A DNA stretch of 27,882 nt from IMG/VR virus record IMGVR_UViG_2698536647_000011, positions 1 to 27,882 of that record; one strand, given 5' to 3'. Under the pieces are notes generated by a model. That model had not been told where the DNA came from. It was given only the letters and a program-made list of their open reading frames with translations, and made no database searches. Shown here piece by piece: positions 3,260 through 26,238 of the stretch (its first letter is position 1; each line of letters starts with the position of its first letter). Position numbers and translations under genes: made by a program. The DNA comes from a virus (taxonomy: Duplodnaviria > Heunggongvirae > Uroviricota > Caudoviricetes).

Positions 3260-3462
3260 ACGTAAAACCCTGCTGGCCCCCGGCGTCGTGATGTGGTGCC
3301 AACCTGAGATTCAAGGTCAGCAATATATTTTTTGAGATCGCTGACTGAAGTGGCTGTAAATTCCACTCTTCGACCGTCTTTCTGTACCGTCGCCACGCGC
3401 TTTCCCATCATCAGGTCATGTAACGCAGCGCGCGCGGCATCCAGTTCAGTCTGTGTTGCCAT
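3256..3462 (-). CDS. W: Head-tail joining protein W (lambda gpW-like)
   Basis: 68 aa; ...[43 protein letters not shown]...[10 protein letters not shown] matches lambda gpW; start overlaps terminase stop (TAATG). Confidence 0.9.
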
Positions 3463-5384
3463 TATTCATCTCCAGATAATGCCCGCGCGTAATCCGCCAG
3501 GGTCTTGTTATTGTTACGGCTGCCTTCTTCCTCCAGCAGGCTGGCCAGAAGTGAATCAAGATTTAGCTGCCAGCGGGATATGCTTATACGCAGCGCCGCC
3601 AGTGCATAAACAAAGCAATCGAGCGCCTCATTTCGTCGTTTTTTGCTGTCCCATACGATCTTTTTCTTTCCGTCTACCCATTTTTCCACCTGCTCTTCAG
3701 CTGTTAGTTGTTGGGCCTCTGTTAGATCGTAGATTTCTGGGTTATTCGGGAAATGAACCGCTCCCGCCAGCGGCTCGTCTCTTTGCGCCACCAGCGTGAA
3801 ACGGTTATAAATCTGCTCTTTTGCGGTGTCTGTTCCTACCTCTGTGAGGTAAACACCATTCTTGTTACGCTTGCGTGGCATGTTCGCCACTGGCTTTCCA
3901 TAAACCGACGCCCCCTTTATAGGGATCACACGAAACAGACCGTGTTTTTTTGAGCGGTTGTAGACGATGGTGGGATCAATGCCGCCAATATCCCAGCAAG
4001 TGCGGGATATAACCATTTCGAGACCGTTCTGGCGCTTATACGTCCTGTTGATCGCTTCATCAACTCGAGCGAGAGTCGACTCATCATCATGACGACCCAT
4101 AATGATAATTTTGTCGATAAGCCAGCTTTCCTCTCCCGGCCCCCATCCCCAAACACGCATTTCGTAACGGTCAAGCTGGGAGTCAATACCCGCTGTCAGA
4201 TATGCCACTCGCTCCGGCACAGACGCTTCAAAGTGCTCTTTTCGTTCCGCTAAAACTTCAGCATCGGGTCGTTCACCTATTTTCGGTTCCCACGTTTCGC
4301 CCAGGGTCGTGTTAACGAAAGTTTTTCGCTTACCCGTATCACCTTTTGTTTTTATCCAGTCCTTGACGATCTGCACCCAGGTTGTGAACGGGCTATATGC
4401 GGTCCAGATGTGGAATGTAACGCTGTCAGGAGGTTCAATTTCGGTACCGGATGAAGAAAACCAGTTAAGGCCGTCTCGTGTCCAGATACCTGTTTCATCA
4501 CAAATATACCTGGCCTCCAGAAATTCCAGCTCCTGTTGTTTAATCACACAGGCATTGTGTTCACAGAGGTAGTAAACGCTGGCAGGTTCTCCCGGAGACC
4601 ATTTGAAGCCAAATGGTGTCTCTTTATCACCGAATTTCAGATACTGCTCTTCCCCACAGTGTGGGCATGGAACATGGAACCGAAGAAAATGTTCAGACTC
4701 CTTAGCAGCTCTTTCTATCTGGCACGTACCTTTGACTTTCGGTGTAGATCCGCGAATGGATTTCGGCCATACAGAACCCTCAATACGCTTATCACCCAGA
4801 AAGGTGGGAGAACCTTCTTTCTCGATGTCATCATCGAAAGCGGCGAGCTCGTCGTAGCCAGCCACATCAACTGATTTTTCACGGTAGTTTTTTGCAGCCT
4901 TACCGCCCAGGCACCAGAAACCACGACCATTCGAGAAACGCTTCATGCTCAGCGTATTGTCCCGGTGTTTTTTACCGTACCAGGGAGCAAGCGCCAGCAA
5001 CGTCGGAATATCACGAATGGTCGGTTCTACATGAGACTTCATGAAGTTTTCAGCATCACCGTCGGTTGGTAACCATATTAGGGAGTTACGCTGTTTATGT
5101 TGGATGAAATATGCGTAAACGCCGAGCAACATTTTTGAGTAGCCGACACGAGCCGATTTAACGACATTCACCTCGCGAATATAGTCATTACCCATCGCAT
5201 TCATAATTGCACGCTGAAATGGCAGTGTTTCCCAGCGCCCTTCCTGGTAGGCAGACTCTTTCGGGAGATAATAATTCTCATCTGCCCATTCAACTGCTGT
5301 TTGCGGTTGCGGCCGGTACAGCGAACGTAACCCCGCCCGCGCAGAGTGCTGCAGCCCCTTAACCTGACTGTTCGATATATTCAC
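3462..5384 (-). CDS. A: Terminase large subunit (lambda gpA-like)
   Basis: 640 aa, lambda gpA length and position between Nu1 and W; 5' end overlaps Nu1 3' end as in lambda. Confidence 0.95.
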
Positions 5385-5904
5385 TCAGCAACCCCGGTAT
5401 CATTTCATCCAGCGCAGCTGCCTTGTTCATGGCCTTAATGATGTCCTTCTTGAGGAAATCAATATGTCGGTTCTCCAGCTCCGGGAAGCGCCGCTGAACC
5501 GACAGAGGTATTCCATCGAGAATGCTGGCGATTTCTCCGGCTACCCGCGACAGCACGAACGTGCAGAATGCGGTCTCCACCACTTCAGCGGACTCTTTTG
5601 CATTTTTTAATTCCTGAGCGTCAGCCTGAGCTCGCGTAAGTCGGTGTCGCTCATATTCAATCGTGCCAGGTTGAAGATCGGACTCAGAAGCGATACGGAG
5701 ATCTTCAACTTCCTTCCGCAACTTTTCATTTTCTATAGCTGCATCGCGCGCACTGTACCATTCGATTGCAGCAGCAGATTCAAAGAGAACCTCATTACCT
5801 TTGCCACCACCGCGGACAACCGGCATACCTTGCTCCTGCCAGTTCTGAATCGTTCGGACGCTTACCCCGAAAATTTCGGATAAGCGTTTTTTGTTAACCT
5901 CCAT
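5359..5904 (-). CDS. Nu1: Terminase small subunit (lambda Nu1-like)
   Basis: 181 aa; MEVNKKRLSEIFGVSVRTIQNWQEQGMPVVRGGGKGNEVL... is near-identical to lambda Nu1 N-terminal winged-HTH region. Confidence 0.95.
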   Translation of the reverse strand: MEVNKKRLSEIFGVSVRTIQNWQEQGMPVVRGGGKGNEVLFESAAAIEWYSARDAAIENEKLRKEVEDLRIASESDLQPGTIEYERHRLTRAQADAQELKNAKESAEVVETAFCTFVLSRVAGEIASILDGIPLSVQRRFPELENRHIDFLKKDIIKAMNKAAALDEMIPGLLSEYIEQSG

Positions 5905-6149
5905 GGCTTACTCCTGGCAAAAAACAGAGAAAGGAAACAATCAACGGTAAACTTCCGTTTTCCTTGCTCAGCATTTCCTTTCTGGAGAGAGGACGTTTTT
6001 AACAAAAACAATGAGTAAACAAGAAGAAGAACGGAAATGGCATAAACCAGAAAATTTTCATAAATAGCGAGAATCTGCGCGGACGCCGCCCCGTAACAAG
6101 GCGGATCGCCGGAAAGGACCCGCAAACGATAATAATTATCAATTGCACA
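5905..6149 (-). promoter_or_regulatory. cos region (cosB, cosN, cosQ); cosN 12-nt cohesive end predicted at about 6080-6091 (GGGCGGCGTCCG on - strand)
   Basis: Reverse complement of 6060-6125 aligns base-for-base with the lambda genome end junction (...GGTCCTTTCCGG..GTTACG|GGGCGGCG.CC.|CGC...CGCTATTTATGAAAATTTTC); lies immediately upstream of Nu1. Confidence 0.75.
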
Positions 6150-6878
6150 CTATCGACGGCACTGCTGCCAGATAACACCACCGGGGAAACATTCCATCAT
6201 GATGGCCGTGCGGACATAGGAAGCCAGTTCATCCATCGCTTTCTTGTCTGCTGCCATTTGCTTTGTGACATCCAGCGCCGCACATTCAGCAGCGTTTTTC
6301 AGCGCGTTTTCGATCAACGTTTCAATGTTGGTATCAACACCAGGTTTAACTTTGAACTTATCGGCACTGACGGTTACCTTGTTCTGCGCTGGCTCATCAC
6401 GCTGGATACCAAGGCTGATGTTGTAGATATTGGTCACCGGCTGAGGTGTTTCGATTGCCGCTGCGTGGATAGCACCATTTGCGATAGCGGCGTCCTTGAT
6501 GAATGACACTCCATTGCGAATAAGTTCGAAGGAGACGGTGTCACGAATGCGCTGGTCCAGCTCGTCGATTGCCTTTTGTGCAGCAGAGGTATCAATCTCA
6601 ACGCCAAGCGTCATCGAAGCGCAATATTGCTGCTCACCAAAACGCGTATTGACCAGGTGTTCAACGGCAAATTTCTGCCCTTCTGATGTCAGAAAGGTAA
6701 AGTGATTTTCTTTCTGGTATTCAGTTGCTGTGTGTCTGGTTTCAGCAAAACCAAGCTCGCGCAATTCGGCTGTGCCAGATTTAGAAGGCAGATCACCAGA
6801 CAGCAACGCGCCACGGAAAAACAGCGCATAAAGCACTTCATTAGCAGCGCCAGATAGCGTAATGATTTTGTTACTCAT
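6150..6878 (-). CDS. Hypothetical protein (242 aa) abutting cos; no family recognised
   Basis: Long ORF; internal ATG at 6878 (MSNKIITLSGAANEV...) has RBS AAGGAAA; the annotated ORF start at 6917 lacks one. Confidence 0.55.
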   Translation of the reverse strand: MSNKIITLSGAANEVLYALFFRGALLSGDLPSKSGTAELRELGFAETRHTATEYQKENHFTFLTSEGQKFAVEHLVNTRFGEQQYCASMTLGVEIDTSAAQKAIDELDQRIRDTVSFELIRNGVSFIKDAAIANGAIHAAAIETPQPVTNIYNISLGIQRDEPAQNKVTVSADKFKVKPGVDTNIETLIENALKNAAECAALDVTKQMAADKKAMDELASYVRTAIMMECFPGGVIWQQCRR

Positions 6879-7263
6879 GGAATATTTCCTTTTAGGCGTG
6901 AGCCTGTCGCACGGCAATGCCGCCCGAGAGGTAAACGCAACCTAACGGCATCACCCAGGCTCACTACTGAAAGACTCTCTTTGATGTGCGCGTGCGATGC
7001 GCGTAGAAGACTGATTTATCAACCTGTCTTTATATCAGGATTCATTACCTGACTATTTGTGGGTAAAGTTCGTAGTGCGCTGATCGTGCAAAATGATTTT
7101 AGTTGGGAACAGTTCGCAACTCTGTCCCATAAAAATCAGCATATTCCCATCTATCCCATATCCAGCGCATTGACCATCGGGATACTGAAGGGAGATTCCA
7201 TCATCTCTTAGAAAGATCACCATCTCTTTTGTTTCAATTTGCATATAGCTACCTGGAGGATTT

Positions 7264-7878
7264 ATGAATGCAAGGATTTTCATGGACTATTACCATGAGA
7301 TTGATTTTCCATCTTTATTCGCGAGAGCAGTGGAAAGCGATGACGATGTGGGTACTACATTGCGCATTCACCTACTTTGTGAGCGCATGGTCGAAGCATG
7401 GATATGCGCATGCTGTGACTGCCAAGATCTCTTTGGAAGAGATAAAAACAAACTTTTAATCGAATGTAATACTAAAATATCCATGGCGGGAAACCTGGGA
7501 ATCCCCCCGGAACTTATGAAATCACTTAAAACCATCAACTCAATGCGTAATGACCTTGCACACAATCCATCAATACAAAGCATTGCTGATTCAAGGATCC
7601 AGAGCCTGAAGGATACTCTGACTGAATACTTTAAACAGCATCCAACGGAACCCAGCATGGAAGAATCAAAACTGGGTATTTTTAACGCCGAGAATCAATT
7701 AACCGAAGAAGTTTCCTTAGATAGTGACAGTTCAAAAAACAGACTTAAGTTAATCTTGCTGTTCAGCAAGTTAATGCAGGCGTTAATGCAATTAGTTGCA
7801 GCTAATCATAATGGGCGCTGGGATAACCAATTTAGCCAATTCGTTTACCATGTGACCATGAACGCAACAAAGAGATAA
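7264..7878 (+). CDS. HEPN-motif protein (204 aa), possible abortive-infection or RNase-type accessory gene; opposite strand to phage late genes
   Basis: Contains ...LKTINSMRNDLAHNPSIQ..., an R-x4-H arrangement as in HEPN RNase motifs; AT-rich codon usage unlike flanking phage genes; RBS GGAGGA 4 nt before ATG; followed by stem-loops at 7884-7902 and 7915-7935. Confidence 0.55.
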   Translation: MNARIFMDYYHEIDFPSLFARAVESDDDVGTTLRIHLLCERMVEAWICACCDCQDLFGRDKNKLLIECNTKISMAGNLGIPPELMKSLKTINSMRNDLAHNPSIQSIADSRIQSLKDTLTEYFKQHPTEPSMEESKLGIFNAENQLTEEVSLDSDSSKNRLKLILLFSKLMQALMQLVAANHNGRWDNQFSQFVYHVTMNATKR

Positions 7879-8357: not shown

Positions 8358-8861
8358 CTATTGGTTATTCGACAGTCGCACTGATTCGTAAATCCGCTCA
8401 CACGTCATTCCTGCCCGGTAGCTTTCGTCAGATCGTCCAGCATAATATCGAGCTGCTTCTGCAAGGCTTCCGAGCATGTCGGCAAGCATTGCTGCGTTGG
8501 CTCCGGCTGTTTTGCTTCTGACGGAAGTGGCGAGATCTGCGGTGTGCTTTGCGGCGTCCATGTGGGTAGCGAGTTTTGTTGCTTCGGCGCGCAGCTGCTT
8601 AACAGTGGTAGCCAGGCCAGCAGAAGTAACGGCAGCGCTCGCTGCTTGAGCTTGAGCATCTTTAACGGCCTCATCCCGGGCGATTGTTCGCCCTTGTTCA
8701 ATCATACGAGCTGCGGTCTGTGCATTCGCTTCCTGTGAAGATTCCGCGCTATCCCGGTCAGCCCACTTTATTTTCCAGCTGCGGTTCGTCCACTCACTGC
8801 CAGCGAGAAACGAACCTACCAACGCAACAATCACAATGATGCAGATGCCACCCGGCTTCAC
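8358..8861 (-). CDS. Rz: Rz-like i-spanin
   Basis: Position after endolysin; N-terminal TM segment (ICIIVIVALVGSFLAG) then Ala/Gln/Arg-rich coiled-coil periplasmic domain; likely GTG start at 8861 overlapping endolysin stop. Start uncertain. Confidence 0.7.
   Translation of the reverse strand: MKPGGICIIVIVALVGSFLAGSEWTNRSWKIKWADRDSAESSQEANAQTAARMIEQGRTIARDEAVKDAQAQAASAAVTSAGLATTVKQLRAEATKLATHMDAAKHTADLATSVRSKTAGANAAMLADMLGSLAEAARYYAGRSDESYRAGMTCERIYESVRLSNNQ
8405..8659 (-). CDS. Rz1: Rz1-like o-spanin lipoprotein, embedded in +1 frame inside Rz
   Basis: MLKLKQRALPLLLLAWLPLLSSC lipoprotein signal with lipobox Cys, followed by Pro-rich short mature peptide; classic embedded Rz1 architecture. 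Alternative start at 8674. Confidence 0.7.
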   Translation of the reverse strand: MLKLKQRALPLLLLAWLPLLSSCAPKQQNSLPTWTPQSTPQISPLPSEAKQPEPTQQCLPTCSEALQKQLDIMLDDLTKATGQE

Positions 8862-9406
8862 TGGTCTATCCCCCAGCACGTCAGTGCGCTTTCCTGGTCC
8901 CGCCGTTCTACCTGCCCATAACATCCATCCTTCTGGCCCTTGGTCAGGCGGCAATCGCGGCCACCGTCTTTAATCCACCAGCGGATTGCCTCGCATGCAC
9001 CGATGCGGTCACCTGCGTTGATGCGCTTATAGAAGGTCGATGGGAAACATTTTCCGGGGCCGATGTTATATGGGCAGAAAGAAGCGATACCCGCTTTCTG
9101 TGGTTCGGTCAGTGGTACTTTGATATTTCGGTCAACCCACGCCAGCGCCTTGTCGCGTTCAATGGCGTTTACCTGGGCGCATTTCTCAGCTGACAGCTTC
9201 ATGCCCTGTACTACTGGCTTGCCATCAACCATTGTTGCACCACGGCAAATGGTCCAGAGTCCGCCGCCGTCGCGATATGCTGTCAAGCTGTTACCCTCTT
9301 TCTCATCCAGAAACTGATCGAGAATCACGGGTGCGGAAGCCCCGGCAAGAATCAAACCAACGACCGCTGCGCTCAATTTATTCTTCAGCTTTAGAGACAT
9401 AGCCAT
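8858..9406 (-). CDS. R: SAR endolysin (T4-lysozyme-like GH24 with N-terminal signal-anchor-release domain), phage 21 R-type
   Basis: N-terminal weakly hydrophobic Gly/Ala-rich segment (LSAAVVGLILAGASAPVIL) followed by E-x8-D-x5-T catalytic triad (EGNSLTAYRDGGGLWT). Confidence 0.9.
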   Translation of the reverse strand: MAMSLKLKNKLSAAVVGLILAGASAPVILDQFLDEKEGNSLTAYRDGGGLWTICRGATMVDGKPVVQGMKLSAEKCAQVNAIERDKALAWVDRNIKVPLTEPQKAGIASFCPYNIGPGKCFPSTFYKRINAGDRIGACEAIRWWIKDGGRDCRLTKGQKDGCYGQVERRDQESALTCWGIDQ

Positions 9407-9656
9407 TGCGCCGATCCTCCCGTTCTTTCCAGCGGAAATACCAGTTCACTGCACAGGTGATTACCGTGCATGCGATACCGACAATAATTGCCCAGTCGCT
9501 CAGGCTTAACCCTGCAATTCTGTCGGCCAACATCCAGGACACCTCTTTTGCTGTTTTTGCTGTTTCGGCATATGCCTTCGCTGATACACCGCAGCCGGTC
9601 AGCGTGGTGCCTGTTCCATATGAAAGTCTGCTGTAAATGGTGCTCATTCTGGTCAT
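9378..9656 (-). CDS. S: Holin, S21/pinholin-like, with dual-start motif (M-T-R-M)
   Basis: C-terminal ...WAIIVGIACTVITCAVNWYFRWKEREDRRNG resembles phage 21 S (…NLYFKIREDRRKAARGE) from memory; two TM segments; overlaps endolysin start; paired with SAR endolysin. Confidence 0.8.
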   Translation of the reverse strand: MTRMSTIYSRLSYGTGTTLTGCGVSAKAYAETAKTAKEVSWMLADRIAGLSLSDWAIIVGIACTVITCAVNWYFRWKEREDRRNGYVSKAEE

Positions 9657-9885
9657 AGCCTCACCTCCGATTTTTCGGATGGCGCTGTGTGTGTATGAAA
9701 AGGATCAGGCCCTCGGGACGATTTAACAAGAAGGCATGTCGATGATGGTTCCCGTGAGCCTGAAATAGAAAGCCCCAGCAAATGCCTAGGCTAAATGAGG
9801 TGCCAGATCATATATCTGGCCGTATAACCTTGCGTTTGGTATTATTAAATCGCCAAAAGTAACCCTTCAAACACAAGGATTTAAA

Positions 9886-10416
9886 ATGACAAAAAGGAAG
9901 TACCGATTTTATCATGCGGACAGGGGTAACTTGCTGAGCCCTGACATGACAATAATCCCTGTAAATGGCCTCTCTTCATTTGGAAAGCATTATCTCTCCC
10001 GGATAAATAGTGGAAATATGAGCGACGTGCTAGACGAAAATGTACAAAGAGAGATGCTGTATGAAAATGTGCGGATGGAAAATTTCCCATCCCGCCCAAG
10101 CCGATTCTCGTGCCTTTTTGGTGCGAACTCCATTCCTGAAGCGGAAAGCTTCGCCAGAAAGATAATCCCGCAACCGACCACCCCAATTAATATTTATGAA
10201 GTTTTTACTGAAAATTTTGTGATTCTCGATATGAATTGGATGGATTACATAACAACAGATTTCGGTAGTAGGGTTGAATATGCCCGGCAGTACTGGTATT
10301 CATCAATTACCCAGCACGCCCCACTTACCGGCGATAGGATGATACCAACCCTGGAAGTCCTGCTGCCGCTTCCCGTGGAAGTAGGCAAGCAAGTCAGTAC
10401 TGTCGCTTTTGATTAA
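9886..10416 (+). CDS. Hypothetical protein (176 aa), AT-rich accessory gene between Q and holin, antisense to late transcription
   Basis: Clean ORF with AAGGA RBS 6 nt upstream; low GC; no recognisable catalytic motif. Confidence 0.55.
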   Translation: MTKRKYRFYHADRGNLLSPDMTIIPVNGLSSFGKHYLSRINSGNMSDVLDENVQREMLYENVRMENFPSRPSRFSCLFGANSIPEAESFARKIIPQPTTPINIYEVFTENFVILDMNWMDYITTDFGSRVEYARQYWYSSITQHAPLTGDRMIPTLEVLLPLPVEVGKQVSTVAFD

Positions 10417-10585
10417 TCTGACAGTTCTGCTCAGGGAAATGGGCCAAAGGTTTATGTAAAGTCCAAAGCACTTCGGAAAGGATAGCTTTATATAGCTCAC
10501 CATCATTTGCATGATAGCGAAACCTTTCAGAAGGTGAGATTTCGAAAAGTACCTTTCCCTCATCTGAAACAATTCGGACTTTCAT
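10394..10585 (-). CDS. Hypothetical small protein (63 aa)
   Basis: Strong RBS (GGAGGA, spacer about 4) before ATG at 10585; 3' end overlaps the convergent 176-aa gene by 23 nt. Confidence 0.4.
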   Translation of the reverse strand: MKVRIVSDEGKVLFEISPSERFRYHANDGELYKAILSEVLWTLHKPLAHFPEQNCQINQKRQY

Positions 10586-10713
10586 CTTTCCTCCAAATTA
10601 GAAGCTACTGATTCAGTTATTACTTACTCCAGATACGACAAAGCCCCACCATTTCTGGCAGGGCTAGATTATTAAGCTGTGTGTCGAAGTGACCACTCTT
10701 AACACGTTAAACT

Positions 10714-10743
10714 AAAAAATGCGGACCGCACTAGCATTTTTTT
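10714..10743 (-). terminator. Weak bidirectional terminator-like hairpin flanked by A- and T-runs
   Basis: AAAAAATGCGGACCGCACTAGCATTTTTTT; short stem only. Confidence 0.25.
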
Positions 10744-10745
10744 AA

Positions 10746-10880
10746 TTATTTTTGCCTACTAACGACTGCATCCATCTCAAGGCGAACATCCAGCATTGAC
10801 AGACACCCCTCAATAAACCCTTCAGCAAGCAGCATTTCTATGCGTATCTGCTTTTCGCTTTTCTTCCGGTGCTTCGCCAT
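10746..10880 (-). pseudogene. Possible 3' remnant of a second Q-family antiterminator gene (44-codon ORF)
   Basis: ...KQIRIEMLLAEGFIEGCLSMLDVRLEMD... parallels the C-terminal segment of the intact Q upstream (ISTIRREVKQIINASLFCL) and what I recall of QuuD-type C-termini; no good RBS. Confidence 0.25.
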
Positions 10881-10940
10881 CTGCCGTTTTGAATACCGTA
10901 GAATATAATGCCCAACCAACAAATGATTGTCTGCGGCCGA

Positions 10941-10966
10941 AATAAAAAAGCCCGAGACAAGCGGGC
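10941..10966 (-). terminator. Intrinsic terminator (candidate late-operon terminator, second of a tandem pair)
   Basis: On - strand GCCCG-CTTGTCT-CGGGC followed by TTTTTTATTT. Confidence 0.55.
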
Positions 10967-11040
10967 AATATGGGGGTAAGGCAATGCCGGCTCGTTGGCC
11001 GAAGGGTCCCAGGCAGTGGGTTCTGTGTGCGGCGTACCGC

Positions 11041-11070
11041 AAATAAAAAAGCCCCGCACGATGGCGAGGC
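11041..11070 (-). terminator. Intrinsic terminator immediately downstream of Q (first of a tandem pair)
   Basis: On - strand GCCTCGC-CATCGT-GCGGGGC followed by TTTTTTATTT; shares the AAATAAAAAAGCCC core with the 10941 terminator. Confidence 0.55.
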
Positions 11071-11151
11071 TTGGCATTCATTCATGTCACACACAACAAC
11101 GGCAACATATACGATTTATTCTGCTCATTTGTTCATTGAAAAGCAAGCTCG

Positions 11152-11634
11152 TTATGAGGATTTTTTTGCAATTTTCCTCACATTTTCGCGATTGTTAAAC
11201 GCATTTTGCAGCGGTTGGTACAAGCAGAACAGTGAGGCATTGATGATTTGCTTCACCTCTCTACGGATTGTCGAGATGCTTGGGTGTTTATACTGATTTC
11301 CGCCACGCGTCTTCATCAGGCGAGGCTTACTTACTGCATGCTGCCATGATGCAATTCGGATCTCGCTGGAGTTACAAACGTAGTAGGCGAAGACAACCCG
11401 CCAGGCATTTTCATCCACATTCTTCAGATAGTGACGAATGACAGCATCAATGAGCATCCCGTCATCATCACTACATACCGGTCGTGATGCTTGCTGGGGC
11501 TCAACGGTAGCCATGAATCTGGCAATCATGTTGATCATCGCTTTATCAATCTTGCCGGTCTGGCACCATGCGCCCCACAACTGGAGCCACTGGTCTACCC
11601 ATTGATGCTGGTCGTTGGTTAATTCCAGTTTCAT
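11152..11634 (-). CDS. Q: Late-gene antiterminator Q (Q21/QuuD-type family, not lambda-Q type)
   Basis: 160 aa; position between nin genes and lysis cassette; ...WLQLWGAWCQ... and ...SRPVCSDDDGM... resemble what I recall of E. coli QuuD (ERWGAW..., SRPQCCDDDGM); RBS AAGGAAG. Confidence 0.7.
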   Translation of the reverse strand: MKLELTNDQHQWVDQWLQLWGAWCQTGKIDKAMINMIARFMATVEPQQASRPVCSDDDGMLIDAVIRHYLKNVDENAWRVVFAYYVCNSSEIRIASWQHAVSKPRLMKTRGGNQYKHPSISTIRREVKQIINASLFCLYQPLQNAFNNRENVRKIAKKSS

Positions 11635-22848: not shown

Positions 22849-25800
22849 ATGGAATTTCCATATGTAGTTAAAGCCACGCAAAAGTCGGGAAAGCCTGATG
22901 CTTTTGTCTGGTTCACTGCAAAAACAGAGGCTCGCGCCAATCTGATGCTGGATGTTGCGCTGGAAGATGCAGGTATCGAAACAGGTAGGGGTAAGGACTA
23001 CGCCAAACCGATTCGCACTGATTTCCCAGTTGTCGACGGCCTGCCGAAAGAAGGTGAAGTTGATTTTACCTGGTGTGATCGCTACGAGCTTCAGGACGAT
23101 GGGCGCACCTGGCTGCCAAAAGCCGCTGGTGTGTCTACTGGTTCCGTTGACGCCCCCTACACACCTACTCCGACCGTAATCGTTGAAGATGCGACTGCGT
23201 CCGAAATTGTCCCGGTTGAAATCCGTACTCCAGCGGTCCGCTTTGCCGTCCATCTGATGAACGATAAATACCAAACCCACGTCACTAAAGAGCAGCAGTT
23301 GGCTGCCAGCGAAATGTCACTGGATGAAGGCAATACATATCTCCATAGCCTGCTTGTGGCAAGGAACGATGTGCCCGCGACCGCCAAACTCAGCCTGAAT
23401 GCTGAGTGGAAAATGATTCGGGCGGTTAAGGACATTTTCACACCAGACGAAGAGCACGAACCAAGATTGATCGCTGCATTCATGTCTGACTGGGTGAACA
23501 CGGATGCCGGTGACCGCAATCAACTGATAGAAGACTGGCGCAGTGGTAAGTTGCAGTTGCTCAAAACTGAAACCAGCAGCGGTGCTAACGTTACAACGGG
23601 TCAAGATCTCACTGTTGAGGACGGCATCCAGGCCGACGAGCACGGCCGGGCAGAAGGTGGCGTCGTTGATAGTGAAGTCGATACCGAAGAGCAATCCCAG
23701 CAGATACAGCAACCGAACCTGATCGTTGTTGCCACCCTGCCTTTCCGCCAGCGCGTACTGGCTCAGTTCATCGGTGATGGTGAATATCTCTATCACATCG
23801 ACGCAGGGCAGAAAAATGAGATTGTCCGCCTTGAGATGGACACCGATGACGCGTACGTCCAGAACCTGCTGCTGGCAGCTGAGAATGTGGAAGCATTCAA
23901 AAAAGCCATTGAGCACGATATTCATAAAGTCGTGAATGCCGTTAAGAAAGTCTTCCCTGTCGATGGAAAAATCCCTGAACTCGCAACCTTAATCCAGTTT
24001 TTGAAATTGTGGTTCGCTACAGATCACATCGACCGCGGTATCCTCATTCGCGAATGGGCCGCCGGTAATCGCATCAGTAGTGTGCAGCGTACTGATTCCG
24101 GCACTAATGCCGACGGCGGTTACGTCACTGACCGTGGACCTGACGCACACCACACACTGGACACTCTCGATTTAGAGATTGCGTGTGCCCTTCTGCCTAT
24201 GGACTTCAACCACTTCGAGATCCCGGGCAGCATTCTTCGTCGCGCTAAAGAAATCGTGACCAAAAAAGAAGAACCATGGAAATCATGGAGCAACATCCTG
24301 CGCAATCAGCCAGGCGTTCTGGGTGTTAACCGCACGGCTATTTTTAACCTGGTACGTATCGCACCGGAAAATATTCATTTAACTCCTGTCGCTCACCTGG
24401 AATTTGTTAACCAGACCATGACAGCCGCGTTCAATTCCGCGGTCGAGTTATTGCCGTTGCATGAGGCTGAACCCGCAGCACAGGAAATTCCCCAACCTGA
24501 AGGTAAGGAGTCTCCGCGCAAATCCTTCTGCACTCACGAAGAGAACCTGCAACGCGTGCGTGAAGAAGGAGCACGCCGCCGCGCAGAGGAAGCGGCAGCA
24601 CAACCGCAGAAAGTCGAACAAGAACTGGTTAAAAATGTCGGCAACGGAATATTCGACGTTACGGCTTTGCTGCAGAACTCAGCAACTCATGGCACGAAAA
24701 AGGCTACGGAGACCACCAGCAATGTGCAGGTTCAAGAAACTGTCAGTGATGAAAAACAAGCTGGTGATGAAGTACAGCCAGGCGAAAGCAGTCTGGAGTC
24801 TGGTGAAGAGTCAGATACCAGCCAGAAGGACGATGTAGACCAGAATACGGATTCTGTCGCCAAAAATAGCGATTCTGTAAGCCAAACCGAACCAGTTGCA
24901 GCACAAACCGAGCCAGAAGCGCAATCTGACGAACCAGCTGTTGTTTATCCCGCTTATTTCGAGCCAGGCCGCTATGAAGGGCTGCCAAACGAGGTTTACC
25001 ACGCCGCCAACGGCATCAGCTCAACCCAGGTGAAAGATGCGCGCGTTTCGCTGATGTACTTCAATGCGCGCCACGTAGAGAAAACCATCGTCAAAGAGCG
25101 CTCAGCGGTGCTGGACATGGGCAACTTGGTGCATGCGCTGGCGTTGCAGCCTGAACTACTGGACGCAGAATTCAGCGTTGAACCGGTGATCCCTGAAGGC
25201 GCATTCACAACGGCCGCGACCCTGCGCGCCTTTATCGATGAGCACAATGCCAGCCTGCCGGCGCTGCTGTCTGCCGACGACATCAAGGTGTTACTGGAAG
25301 AGTACAACGCCACCCTGCCGCCGCAGGTTCCGCTTGGCGCTAACCTGGAAGAAACGGCACAGAACTATATGGCGCTGCCAGCTGACTTCCAGCGTATTGA
25401 TGGTGACCAGAAGCAGACGGCGACGGCAATGAAGGCATGCATTAAAGAGTACAACGCCACCCTGCCGCCGCCGGTTAAAACCAGCGGCAGCCGTGACGCG
25501 CTGCTGGAGCAGTTGGCAATCATCAACCCTGACCTTGTGGCTCAGGAAGCACAGAAACCGGCACCACTGAAAGTGTCCGGTACCAAAGCAGACATGATCC
25601 AGGCCGTGAAGGCAGTCAAACCAGATGCCGTATTTGCCGACGAACTGCTGGATGCCTGGCGCGATAACCCGGAAGGAAAAGTGCTGGTCACCCGCCAGCA
25701 GCTGAGCACCGCGCTGAATATTCAAAAAGCGCTTCTGGCACACCCGACCGCCGGCATGCTGCTGACCCACCCTAGCCGAGCCGTTGAGGTGAGCTACTTT

Positions 25801-26238
25801 GGTTTTGACGAGGAGACGGGCTTGGAAGTTCGTGTGCGCCCTGACCTTGAGATCGACCTGGATGGCGTGCGTATAGGTGCAGACCTGAAAACCATCAGCA
25901 TGTGGAATGTTAAGCAGGAAAGCCTGCGCGCCAGGCTACACCGGGAAATTATTGAACGTGATTATCACCTGAGCGCGGCTATGTACTGCGAAACCGCAGC
26001 GCTGGATCAGTTCTTCTGGATTTTCGTCAACAAAGACGAGAACTACCACTGGATCGCCATCATCGAGGCATCCGCTGAACTACTGGAGCTGGGTATGCTC
26101 GAGTACCGCAAAGCGATGCGCAATATCGCAACCGGATTCGACACAGGTGAATGGCCAGCGCCAATCACTGCTGACTACACCGACGAACTGAACGACTTCG
26201 ACCTGCGCCGCCTTGAAGCGCTGCGTACTCAGGCATAA
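22849..26238 (+). CDS. recE: RecE-like exonuclease VIII (1129 aa) with C-terminal PD-(D/E)xK nuclease domain carrying a tandem-repeat insertion
   Basis: N-terminal ...[10 protein letters not shown]...[24 protein letters not shown]... and ...[37 protein letters not shown]..., C-terminal ...[19 protein letters not shown]..., ...[10 protein letters not shown]...IGADLKT... match Rac RecE segments from memory. Confidence 0.85.
   Translation: [1129 protein letters not shown]

Follow-up and report, generated by a model that had tools for sequence, protein, structure and literature searches.

A predicted lambda-type cos region with an N15-type cosN in a lambdoid Escherichia coli prophage

In lambda-like phages, cosQ is the packaging termination signal, cosB is read by Nu1, the small terminase subunit (TerS), and gpA, the large subunit (TerL), combines an ATPase motor with the endonuclease that nicks cosN. 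In lambda (NC_001416), these sites and the terminase genes are arranged as cosQ, cosN, I2, R3, I1, R2, R1, nu1 and A. The cosB of N15, a linear-plasmid prophage, is of the simple kind: it has only one R3, its rR2 lies inside terS, and terS starts at bp 89. The TerS of N15 has a specificity of its own. In the N15 record (NC_001901), which opens with GGGCGGCGTCCGCGCAGATTCTCGCTAT, the annotation gives bases 1-12 as a single-stranded 5′ sticky end.

The cohesive ends of N15 and phiD326, the latter "determined long ago", are unlike the lambda ends at bp 9 and 12 (PMC4669245, Feiss et al. 2015). Variation at bp 7-12 is described as common among lambda-like phages, with cosQ and the left half conserved (PMC4669245). 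Changes at bp 7-12 did not measurably affect cleavage (Xu & Feiss 1991, as cited in PMC4669245). With lambda terminase and an adjacent cosB-lambda, the two nicking sites gave equal yields, 120 pfu per cell for cosN-lambda and 132 for cosN-N15 (PMC4669245, Table 4), and chromosomes with one end of each allele were viable at an approximately fourfold cost in yield (PMC4669245). The engineered phage phi1201 (cosQ-lambda cosN-N15 cosB-lambda), which uses lambda terminase, grew like its control (Feiss et al. 2015).

HK225 (JQ086371) and mEp237 (JQ182730), from Hong Kong and Mexico, respectively, are named, plaque-forming E. coli phages with complete genomes. Neither record has a cos annotation in the stretches that we retrieved. 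We considered the GenBank ends of these two records as empirical termini and rejected them, as both records were linearised at the nu1 ATG.

The cos region and its cohesive end

The window, by which we mean the whole 27.9-kb stretch of DNA analysed, comes from a lambdoid E. coli prophage and is reversed with respect to the lambda map. It has the architecture described above for lambda, in a cos region at 5927-6140 on the minus strand, which is the direction of the phage map. Sequence comparison makes it very probable that this region is a complete lambda-type cos, in which a cosN of the N15/phiD326 allele is combined with a cosB and a TerS of lambda specificity.

As the reference for alignment, we rebuilt the lambda cos junction from NC_001416. 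In a global alignment, the minus strand from 6121 to 5958 corresponded to lambda 48473-48502 followed by bp 1-134 (counted from the left end) with zero gaps. The reverse complement of 6060-6125, which consists of TTGCGGGTCCTTTCCGGCGATCCGCCTTGTTACG, GGGCGGCGTCCG and CGCAGATTCTCGCTATTTAT in succession, was identical to the lambda junction at 56 of 66 positions, also ungapped, and to N15 at 62 of 66 positions. A blastn search with the cos region gave E = 2e-47 for phage HK225 and E = 5e-24 for lambda-type records, where the match in DE3 is annotated as "cos site". The 12-mer of the cohesive end was uninformative by itself, with approximately 2.7 chance matches with two or fewer mismatches expected in the window. 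Because such near-matches occur at the chance rate, the extended alignment was used as evidence.

A preliminary description of this DNA had placed a lambda-type cos with both mature genome ends at 6060-6125 and had named alignment to lambda cos as the check. The alignment, ungapped from lambda 48473 to about bp 134, with cosQ, cosN and cosB in the order, orientation and spacing of lambda, bears this out. The call of a lambda-type cos is correct; the feature itself is already known and belongs to the textbooks, and the result will not surprise a specialist. Presence of both ends inside one window is normal for any integrated or circularised lambdoid genome. For annotation, the site would fix the coordinates and the orientation of the mature genome, with a predicted left end at 6091 running down and a predicted right end at 6080 running up.

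The two named phages resemble the window most clearly in the cos core, which over 106 bp is 100% identical in HK225 and 99% identical in mEp237. Over roughly 240 bp, including the overhang, cosQ, the R boxes and a Fur-box-like palindrome, the identity is about 97-99%. In contrast, the DNA upstream of approximately 6146 is unrelated to that of the window in both phages, and the accessory genes of the right arm differ.

cosQ (GGGTCCT) is at 6115-6121 on the minus strand, that is, at bp -30 to -24 from the left end. It aligns with lambda 48473-48479 and, in the ungapped alignment, lies at the same distance upstream of cosN as in lambda, as is characteristic of a lambda-like cos. This highly conserved 7-bp site is required for termination (PMC4669245). 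We made a profile of 123 unique cos regions from the IMG/VR matches listed together with lambda, N15, 21, HK225, mEp237 and one E. coli prophage. GGGTCCT was invariant in lambda, 21, N15, HK225 and mEp237 and was present in 119 of the 123 natural regions (among the matches listed).

cosN (CG^GGGCGGCGTCCG^CG) is at 6078-6093 on the minus strand and consists of the 12-bp cohesive end with a CG dinucleotide on each side. The flanking CG pairs were found in all 123 sequences among the matches listed, where the search pattern itself required them. Twofold symmetry was seen at 10 of 16 positions, the same ones as in lambda, whose cosN has partial twofold symmetry (PMC9026076). CG flanks and such partial symmetry mark a lambda-like cos (PMC4669245). 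Both substitutions in the overhang fall at positions that are non-symmetric in the window and in lambda.

The predicted 12-nt 5′ cohesive end of the left end, GGGCGGCGTCCG, occupies 6080-6091 and is read from 6091 to 6080 on the minus strand; the predicted overhang of the right end is its complement, CGGACGCCGCCC, on the plus strand at the same positions. When compared to GGGCGGCGACCT of lambda, the left-end overhang has A changed to T at bp 9 and T changed to G at bp 12, and bp 1-8 are identical. It thus matches lambda at 10 of 12 positions and N15 at all 12, being identical to bases 1-12 of NC_001901. These are the two differences from lambda that had been claimed for the cohesive end, and that claim holds on the minus strand at 6080-6091. 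By homology with lambda and N15, nicks are predicted between 6092 and 6091 (minus strand) and between 6079 and 6080 (plus strand).

An unverified 28.9-kb contig designated "Escherichia phage Phi06_2987 S" (KM389287.1; L003) starts at bp 7 of the overhang (CGTCCGCGCAG...). The source of its DNA is undocumented; a contig end at this position would fit a trimmed physical virion end and is suggestive.

The two-base difference from lambda is an allele that has already been described and tested, that of N15/phiD326. The window shares with N15 not only the overhang but also all of bp -7 to +28, cosQ, and the spacing between cosQ and cosN. The overhang belongs to a short haplotype of linked positions, bp 9, 12, 16, 18 and 21, and at all five of them the window differs from lambda. 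Among the IMG/VR matches listed, the overhang alleles (bp 9/bp 12) were A/T in 112 unique sequences, T/G in 7, T/T in 3 and A/G in 1. T at bp 9 was always linked to CGCAGATTCTCGC at bp 13-25, and the T/G haplotype was found with N15-type and with lambda-type cosB (both among the matches listed). A survey by Vahanian et al. 2017 is said to be devoted to natural cosN variation. A full-text literature search with the string of the 12-mer returned only unrelated eukaryotic papers; the allele was published in words ("bp 9 and 12").

The cos of the window is the natural counterpart of the engineered cosQ-lambda cosN-N15 cosB-lambda. phi1201 has the same combination of cosN and cosB. However, it was constructed in the laboratory in a lambda b511 background, whereas the window is a natural mosaic with diverged cosB spacers of its own. 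The window adds one more natural case of an N15-type cosN with a lambda-type cosB, and it fits the view in the literature that variation is tolerated at bp 7-12 but not in cosQ or at bp 1-6. In mixed concatemers with a phage of the lambda allele, chromosomes mismatched at bp 9 and 12 are predicted, which would be viable at an approximately fourfold cost (PMC4669245). Because mismatched ends have this cost in yield, it is conceivable, as a lesser possibility, that the cosN haplotype (bp 9-21) serves as a weak compatibility barrier between phages that share the packaging specificity of lambda.

cosB, terminase and packaging specificity

We mapped the sub-sites of cosB from the curated cos annotation of phage 21 (M81255) and from published lambda coordinates (PMC9026076, PMC4669245). 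In lambda, R3 is at bp 50-65, with the TerS contact at bp 55-63 and the specificity positions at bp 56, 58 and 59 (PMC9026076, PMC4669245).

The equivalent of I2 of phage 21 (bp 30-44) is at 6048-6062 on the minus strand, inside a strongly conserved block, CTATTTATGAAAATTTT. R3 (TGCCATTTCCGTTCTT), the putative critical TerS binding site, follows at 6027-6042 on the minus strand (bp 50-65). It contains the exact lambda R core TTTCCGTTCT, and its TerS contact segment (bp 55-63) is identical to that of lambda. Because the alignment is ungapped, the distance from cosN to R3 is also that of lambda.

The equivalent of I1, a presumed IHF bending site between R3 and R2, is at 6006-6020 on the minus strand, the position of I1 in phage 21. 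It was assigned by position only, because a scan with the IHF consensus allowing one mismatch at most found no match in cosB; the counts were at chance level overall. The plus-strand sequence AAACAATGAGTAA (6006-6018) has two mismatches to WATCAANNNNTTR, in the same quality and register as AAACATTAAGTTA of lambda.

R2, another putative TerS binding site, is at 5969-5984 on the plus strand (lambda bp 108-123), inverted with respect to R3 and R1, and carries the exact R core TTTCCTTTCT at 5974-5983 on the plus strand. R1 (GATTGTTTCCTTTCTC), a putative accessory TerS binding site, is at 5927-5942 on the minus strand (lambda bp 152-167), with the exact R core at 5928-5937 on the same strand.

The exact R core (TTTCCKTTCT) had only three copies in the 27.9 kb, namely R3, R2 and R1, all in lambda orientation. 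With one mismatch allowed, 11 copies were counted in the 27.9 kb where 3.5 were expected, and the count stayed below 11 in all 100 shuffles. From cosQ to R2, the sites are spaced as in lambda. Unlike that of lambda, the cosB of the window carries a 2-bp deletion between R2 and R1, along with a further R-like copy with one mismatch (TTTCCTTGCT, 5956-5971, core 5959-5968), which lies next to R2 and, like R2, on the plus strand. At the aligned position, lambda lacks such a copy. Just outside the R core, CGTTTCC of lambda is replaced by CATTTCC or TGTTTCC in the window. The whole forms a complex cosB of the lambda-like kind, with R3, an I1 position (two mismatches, as in lambda), an inverted R2 and R1, and without an indel between cosN and R2.

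The terminase genes lie downstream on the minus strand. nu1 (5359-5904; also 5362-5904 in the gene list) encodes a TerS of 181 amino acids that matches the Phage_Nu1 family (PF07471, E = 1.6e-95), and its ATG at 5904 corresponds to bp 188. A (3462-5384; also 3465-5384 in the gene list) encodes a TerL of 640 amino acids with GpA_ATPase (PF05876) and GpA_nuclease (PF20454) domains. A Nu1-family TerS with a gpA-family TerL directly downstream is what a lambda-like cos would be expected to have beside it. Lambda Nu1 and the TerS share 87% identity, and in the recognition helix residues 17-24 (RTIQNWQE, with Q20 and E24) are the same in both. For the TerL and lambda gpA, the identity is 88% over an ungapped alignment of 640 amino acids. 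Headful packaging was considered and rejected, as it is not expected from a terminase of the lambda gpA type.

The specificities of lambda and phage 21 can be told apart by bp 56 and 59 of R3 and residues 20 and 24 of TerS (PMC4669245, PMC9026076). In the window, bp 56, 58 and 59 of R3 are T, C and C as in lambda; in phage 21, bp 56 and 59 are both G. T56 and C59 of the window are accompanied by Q20 and E24 in TerS. Because these R3 positions, the TerS helix and the TerL are all of lambda type, the packaging specificity is predicted to be that of lambda, not of 21 type or N15 type.

A packaging specificity other than that of lambda, either of 21 type or of N15/Monarch type, would have to be argued from the left part of the site. 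There, all 28 positions of bp 1-28 agree with N15, and in the spacer that separates cosQ from cosN 29 of 31 positions agree with N15, compared with 27 of 31 for lambda; the R cores also have flanks that differ from lambda. However, to the right of this segment the match changes sides, with 19 of 20 positions identical to lambda and 12 of 20 to N15 over bp 29-48, and 58 of 86 compared with 20 of 86 over bp 49-134. T/C/C in R3 is the lambda state, and TerS residues 17-24 are those of lambda; residues 20 and 24 are E and S in phage 21, and the N15 helix is unrelated. nu1 starts at bp 188, compared with bp 89 in the simple cos of N15. Over its full length, the TerS is 59% identical to that of N15, with no convincing alignment in the N-terminal DNA-binding region. 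The likeness to N15 is limited to the cosN haplotype, and a specificity other than that of lambda is very improbable. It is even harder to credit that this is the cos of a phage-inducible chromosomal island (PICI), which would hijack the terminase of a helper phage. Such islands do have a cosQ and a cosN that are almost the same as in lambda-like phages (PMC9026076), but their cos sites are without phage R sequences and are followed by rpp. The window has R3, R2 and R1; its cos is followed by nu1, A, W, portal and protease in place of rpp, and on the other side lies a phage lysis cassette.

Another reading takes the cos as intact in sequence but situated in a defective prophage that never yields virions or mature ends. 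Non-viable cryptic prophages of K-12 keep cos-proximal Nu1 homologues, nohA and nohB (PMC2189734). Only 27.9 kb of the present prophage is visible, it is heavily mosaic (best coverage by an E. coli genome 64%), and a truncated second Q-like ORF at 10749-11081 hints at a past rearrangement. Nevertheless, every ORF examined is full length, and the cos is base for base that of phage HK225; we consider a relic unlikely. This reading concerns the activity of the prophage and not the identity of the site.

From the lambda paradigm (PMC4669245, PMC9026076), we infer the following mechanism for packaging from this site. After induction and rolling-circle replication, IHF would bend the DNA at I1, and Nu1 dimers bound to R3 and R2 on either side of the bend would position gpA on cosN. 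gpA would then nick the phage top strand at 6092/6091 and the bottom strand at 6079/6080. The strands would part, with terminase remaining on the cosB-containing end and the left end carrying the 5′ overhang GGGCGGCGTCCG. The DNA would be translocated into the prohead nu1 first, toward the head genes, which is leftward in window coordinates. Packaging would terminate at the next cos, where cosQ and cosN would be required.

Conservation and a palindrome beside cosQ

The window had the consensus base at all strongly constrained columns of the profile, that is, in the cosQ block, bp 1-8, the flanking CG pairs and bp 22-40, the last with a column conservation of at least 0.9 (among the matches listed). 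A full-length match to the cos was found in approximately 10 of 5,426 complete E. coli genomes, 5 of them with 100% identity; E. coli YPE10 and ECONIH4 carry a cos that is 100% identical. An exact 21-mer had no match in a one-genome-per-species collection, which is not evidence of absence.

Several IMG/VR contigs contained inverted pairs of a diverged cosN core (L015 at 4161-4758, L017 at 3782-4690, and L008, L032, L041 and L071). Arm lengths were 56-72 nt, the two arms of a pair were 85-89% complementary, and the unique DNA that separated them measured 454-797 nt. Because the arms have diverged and enclose unique DNA, these pairs are not simple assembly palindromes.

A Fur-box-like palindrome (GATAATTATTATC) is located at 6128-6140, 6 bp upstream of cosQ, at the left edge of the conserved cos block. 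It is kept in lambda, 21, N15, HK225 and mEp237 despite unrelated DNA further upstream. Compared with the 19-bp Fur consensus, the palindrome has 15 of 19 positions in agreement in the window and 16 of 19 in lambda. Among the matches listed, 92 of the 123 unique cos regions scored 13-18 of 19, compared with a background maximum of 11. The centre of the palindrome is 230 bp upstream of the nu1 ATG. For the K-12 Nu1 homologue nohA, a Fur site at -233 was confirmed by gel shift, and a further Fur site was predicted at -133 of nohB (PMC2189734). The palindrome of the window corresponds in position to the nohA site. A weak sigma-70-like site was found on the minus strand at 6129-6156, with its -10 hexamer inside the palindrome. 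We found no discussion of the palindrome as part of phage cos in the literature. It may have a function in lambda-like cos regions, for example in a Fur-repressed promoter reading across cos into nu1, but we give this idea only a small chance of being right. If it were true, the expression of the prophage terminase, or the access to cosQ, would respond to iron.

Gene context and mosaicism

The layout of the genes is the standard lambdoid prophage order, seen reversed. The left arm, on the minus strand at and below 5904, consists of nu1, A, W, portal and head protease. On the other side of cos, three small accessory ORFs (6153-6917, 7056-7283, and 7264-7875 on the plus strand) lie between cos and Rz. 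Then come, all on the minus strand, an Rz-like spanin (8361-8954), a lysozyme/endolysin (8861-9406), a holin (9381-9656) and a Q-like antiterminator of 160 amino acids (11155-11634, phrog_943), so that Rz, endolysin, holin and Q span 8361-11634. Further right are NinG, a DnaC-like loader, an O-like initiator and cII, with cI and RecE/RecT on the opposite strand. The preliminary description had assigned everything up to about 6091 to the left arm, with packaging and head genes, and everything from 6092 to a right arm ending in lysis genes. Gene order supports a division of the arms at cos; the lysis genes, however, do not abut cos, as about 2.2 kb lies between.

Among the ORFs examined, those for nu1, A, W, portal, protease, the lysis cassette, Q, NinG, O, the P-like loader, cII, cI, RecE and RecT were full length. 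Tail genes and att sites were not found in the 27.9-kb window, which holds part of the prophage only. No complete E. coli genome contained the whole window, the best coverage being the above 64% at 98.5% identity; this is expected because the prophage is a mosaic lambdoid one.

The Q-type ORF at 10749-11081 (111 amino acids) adjoins Q (11155-11634) and matches only the C-terminal part of Phage_antitermQ (Pfam profile positions 67-118). It may be a remnant of a module swap. At 22849-26235, a RecE-family exonuclease ORF of 1129 amino acids is followed by a RecT-like annealing protein of 372 amino acids; this is a Rac-type recombination module replacing exo/bet of lambda.

The ORF at 6153-6917 (255 amino acids) ends just before cos and occupies the slot of the lambda late accessory genes. 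In related prophages, its PGAP name is "Fur-regulated protein". It belongs to phrog_17079, which has no function assigned in PHROG, and had a marginal Pfam match to a tail-tip-fibre family and zero matches to NCBIfam models. A gene overlapping cos, suggested by a "Fur-regulated protein" under the BLAST match, was considered and rejected, as this ORF ends before the cos block.

Between this ORF and the palindrome, at approximately 6146-6149, there is a mosaic junction. At this point, just left of the palindrome, homology to HK225 and mEp237 sets in abruptly, as does the block that the window has in common with lambda, 21 and N15. It appears that the packaging module is exchanged as one unit, with the palindrome and cosQ as parts of it.
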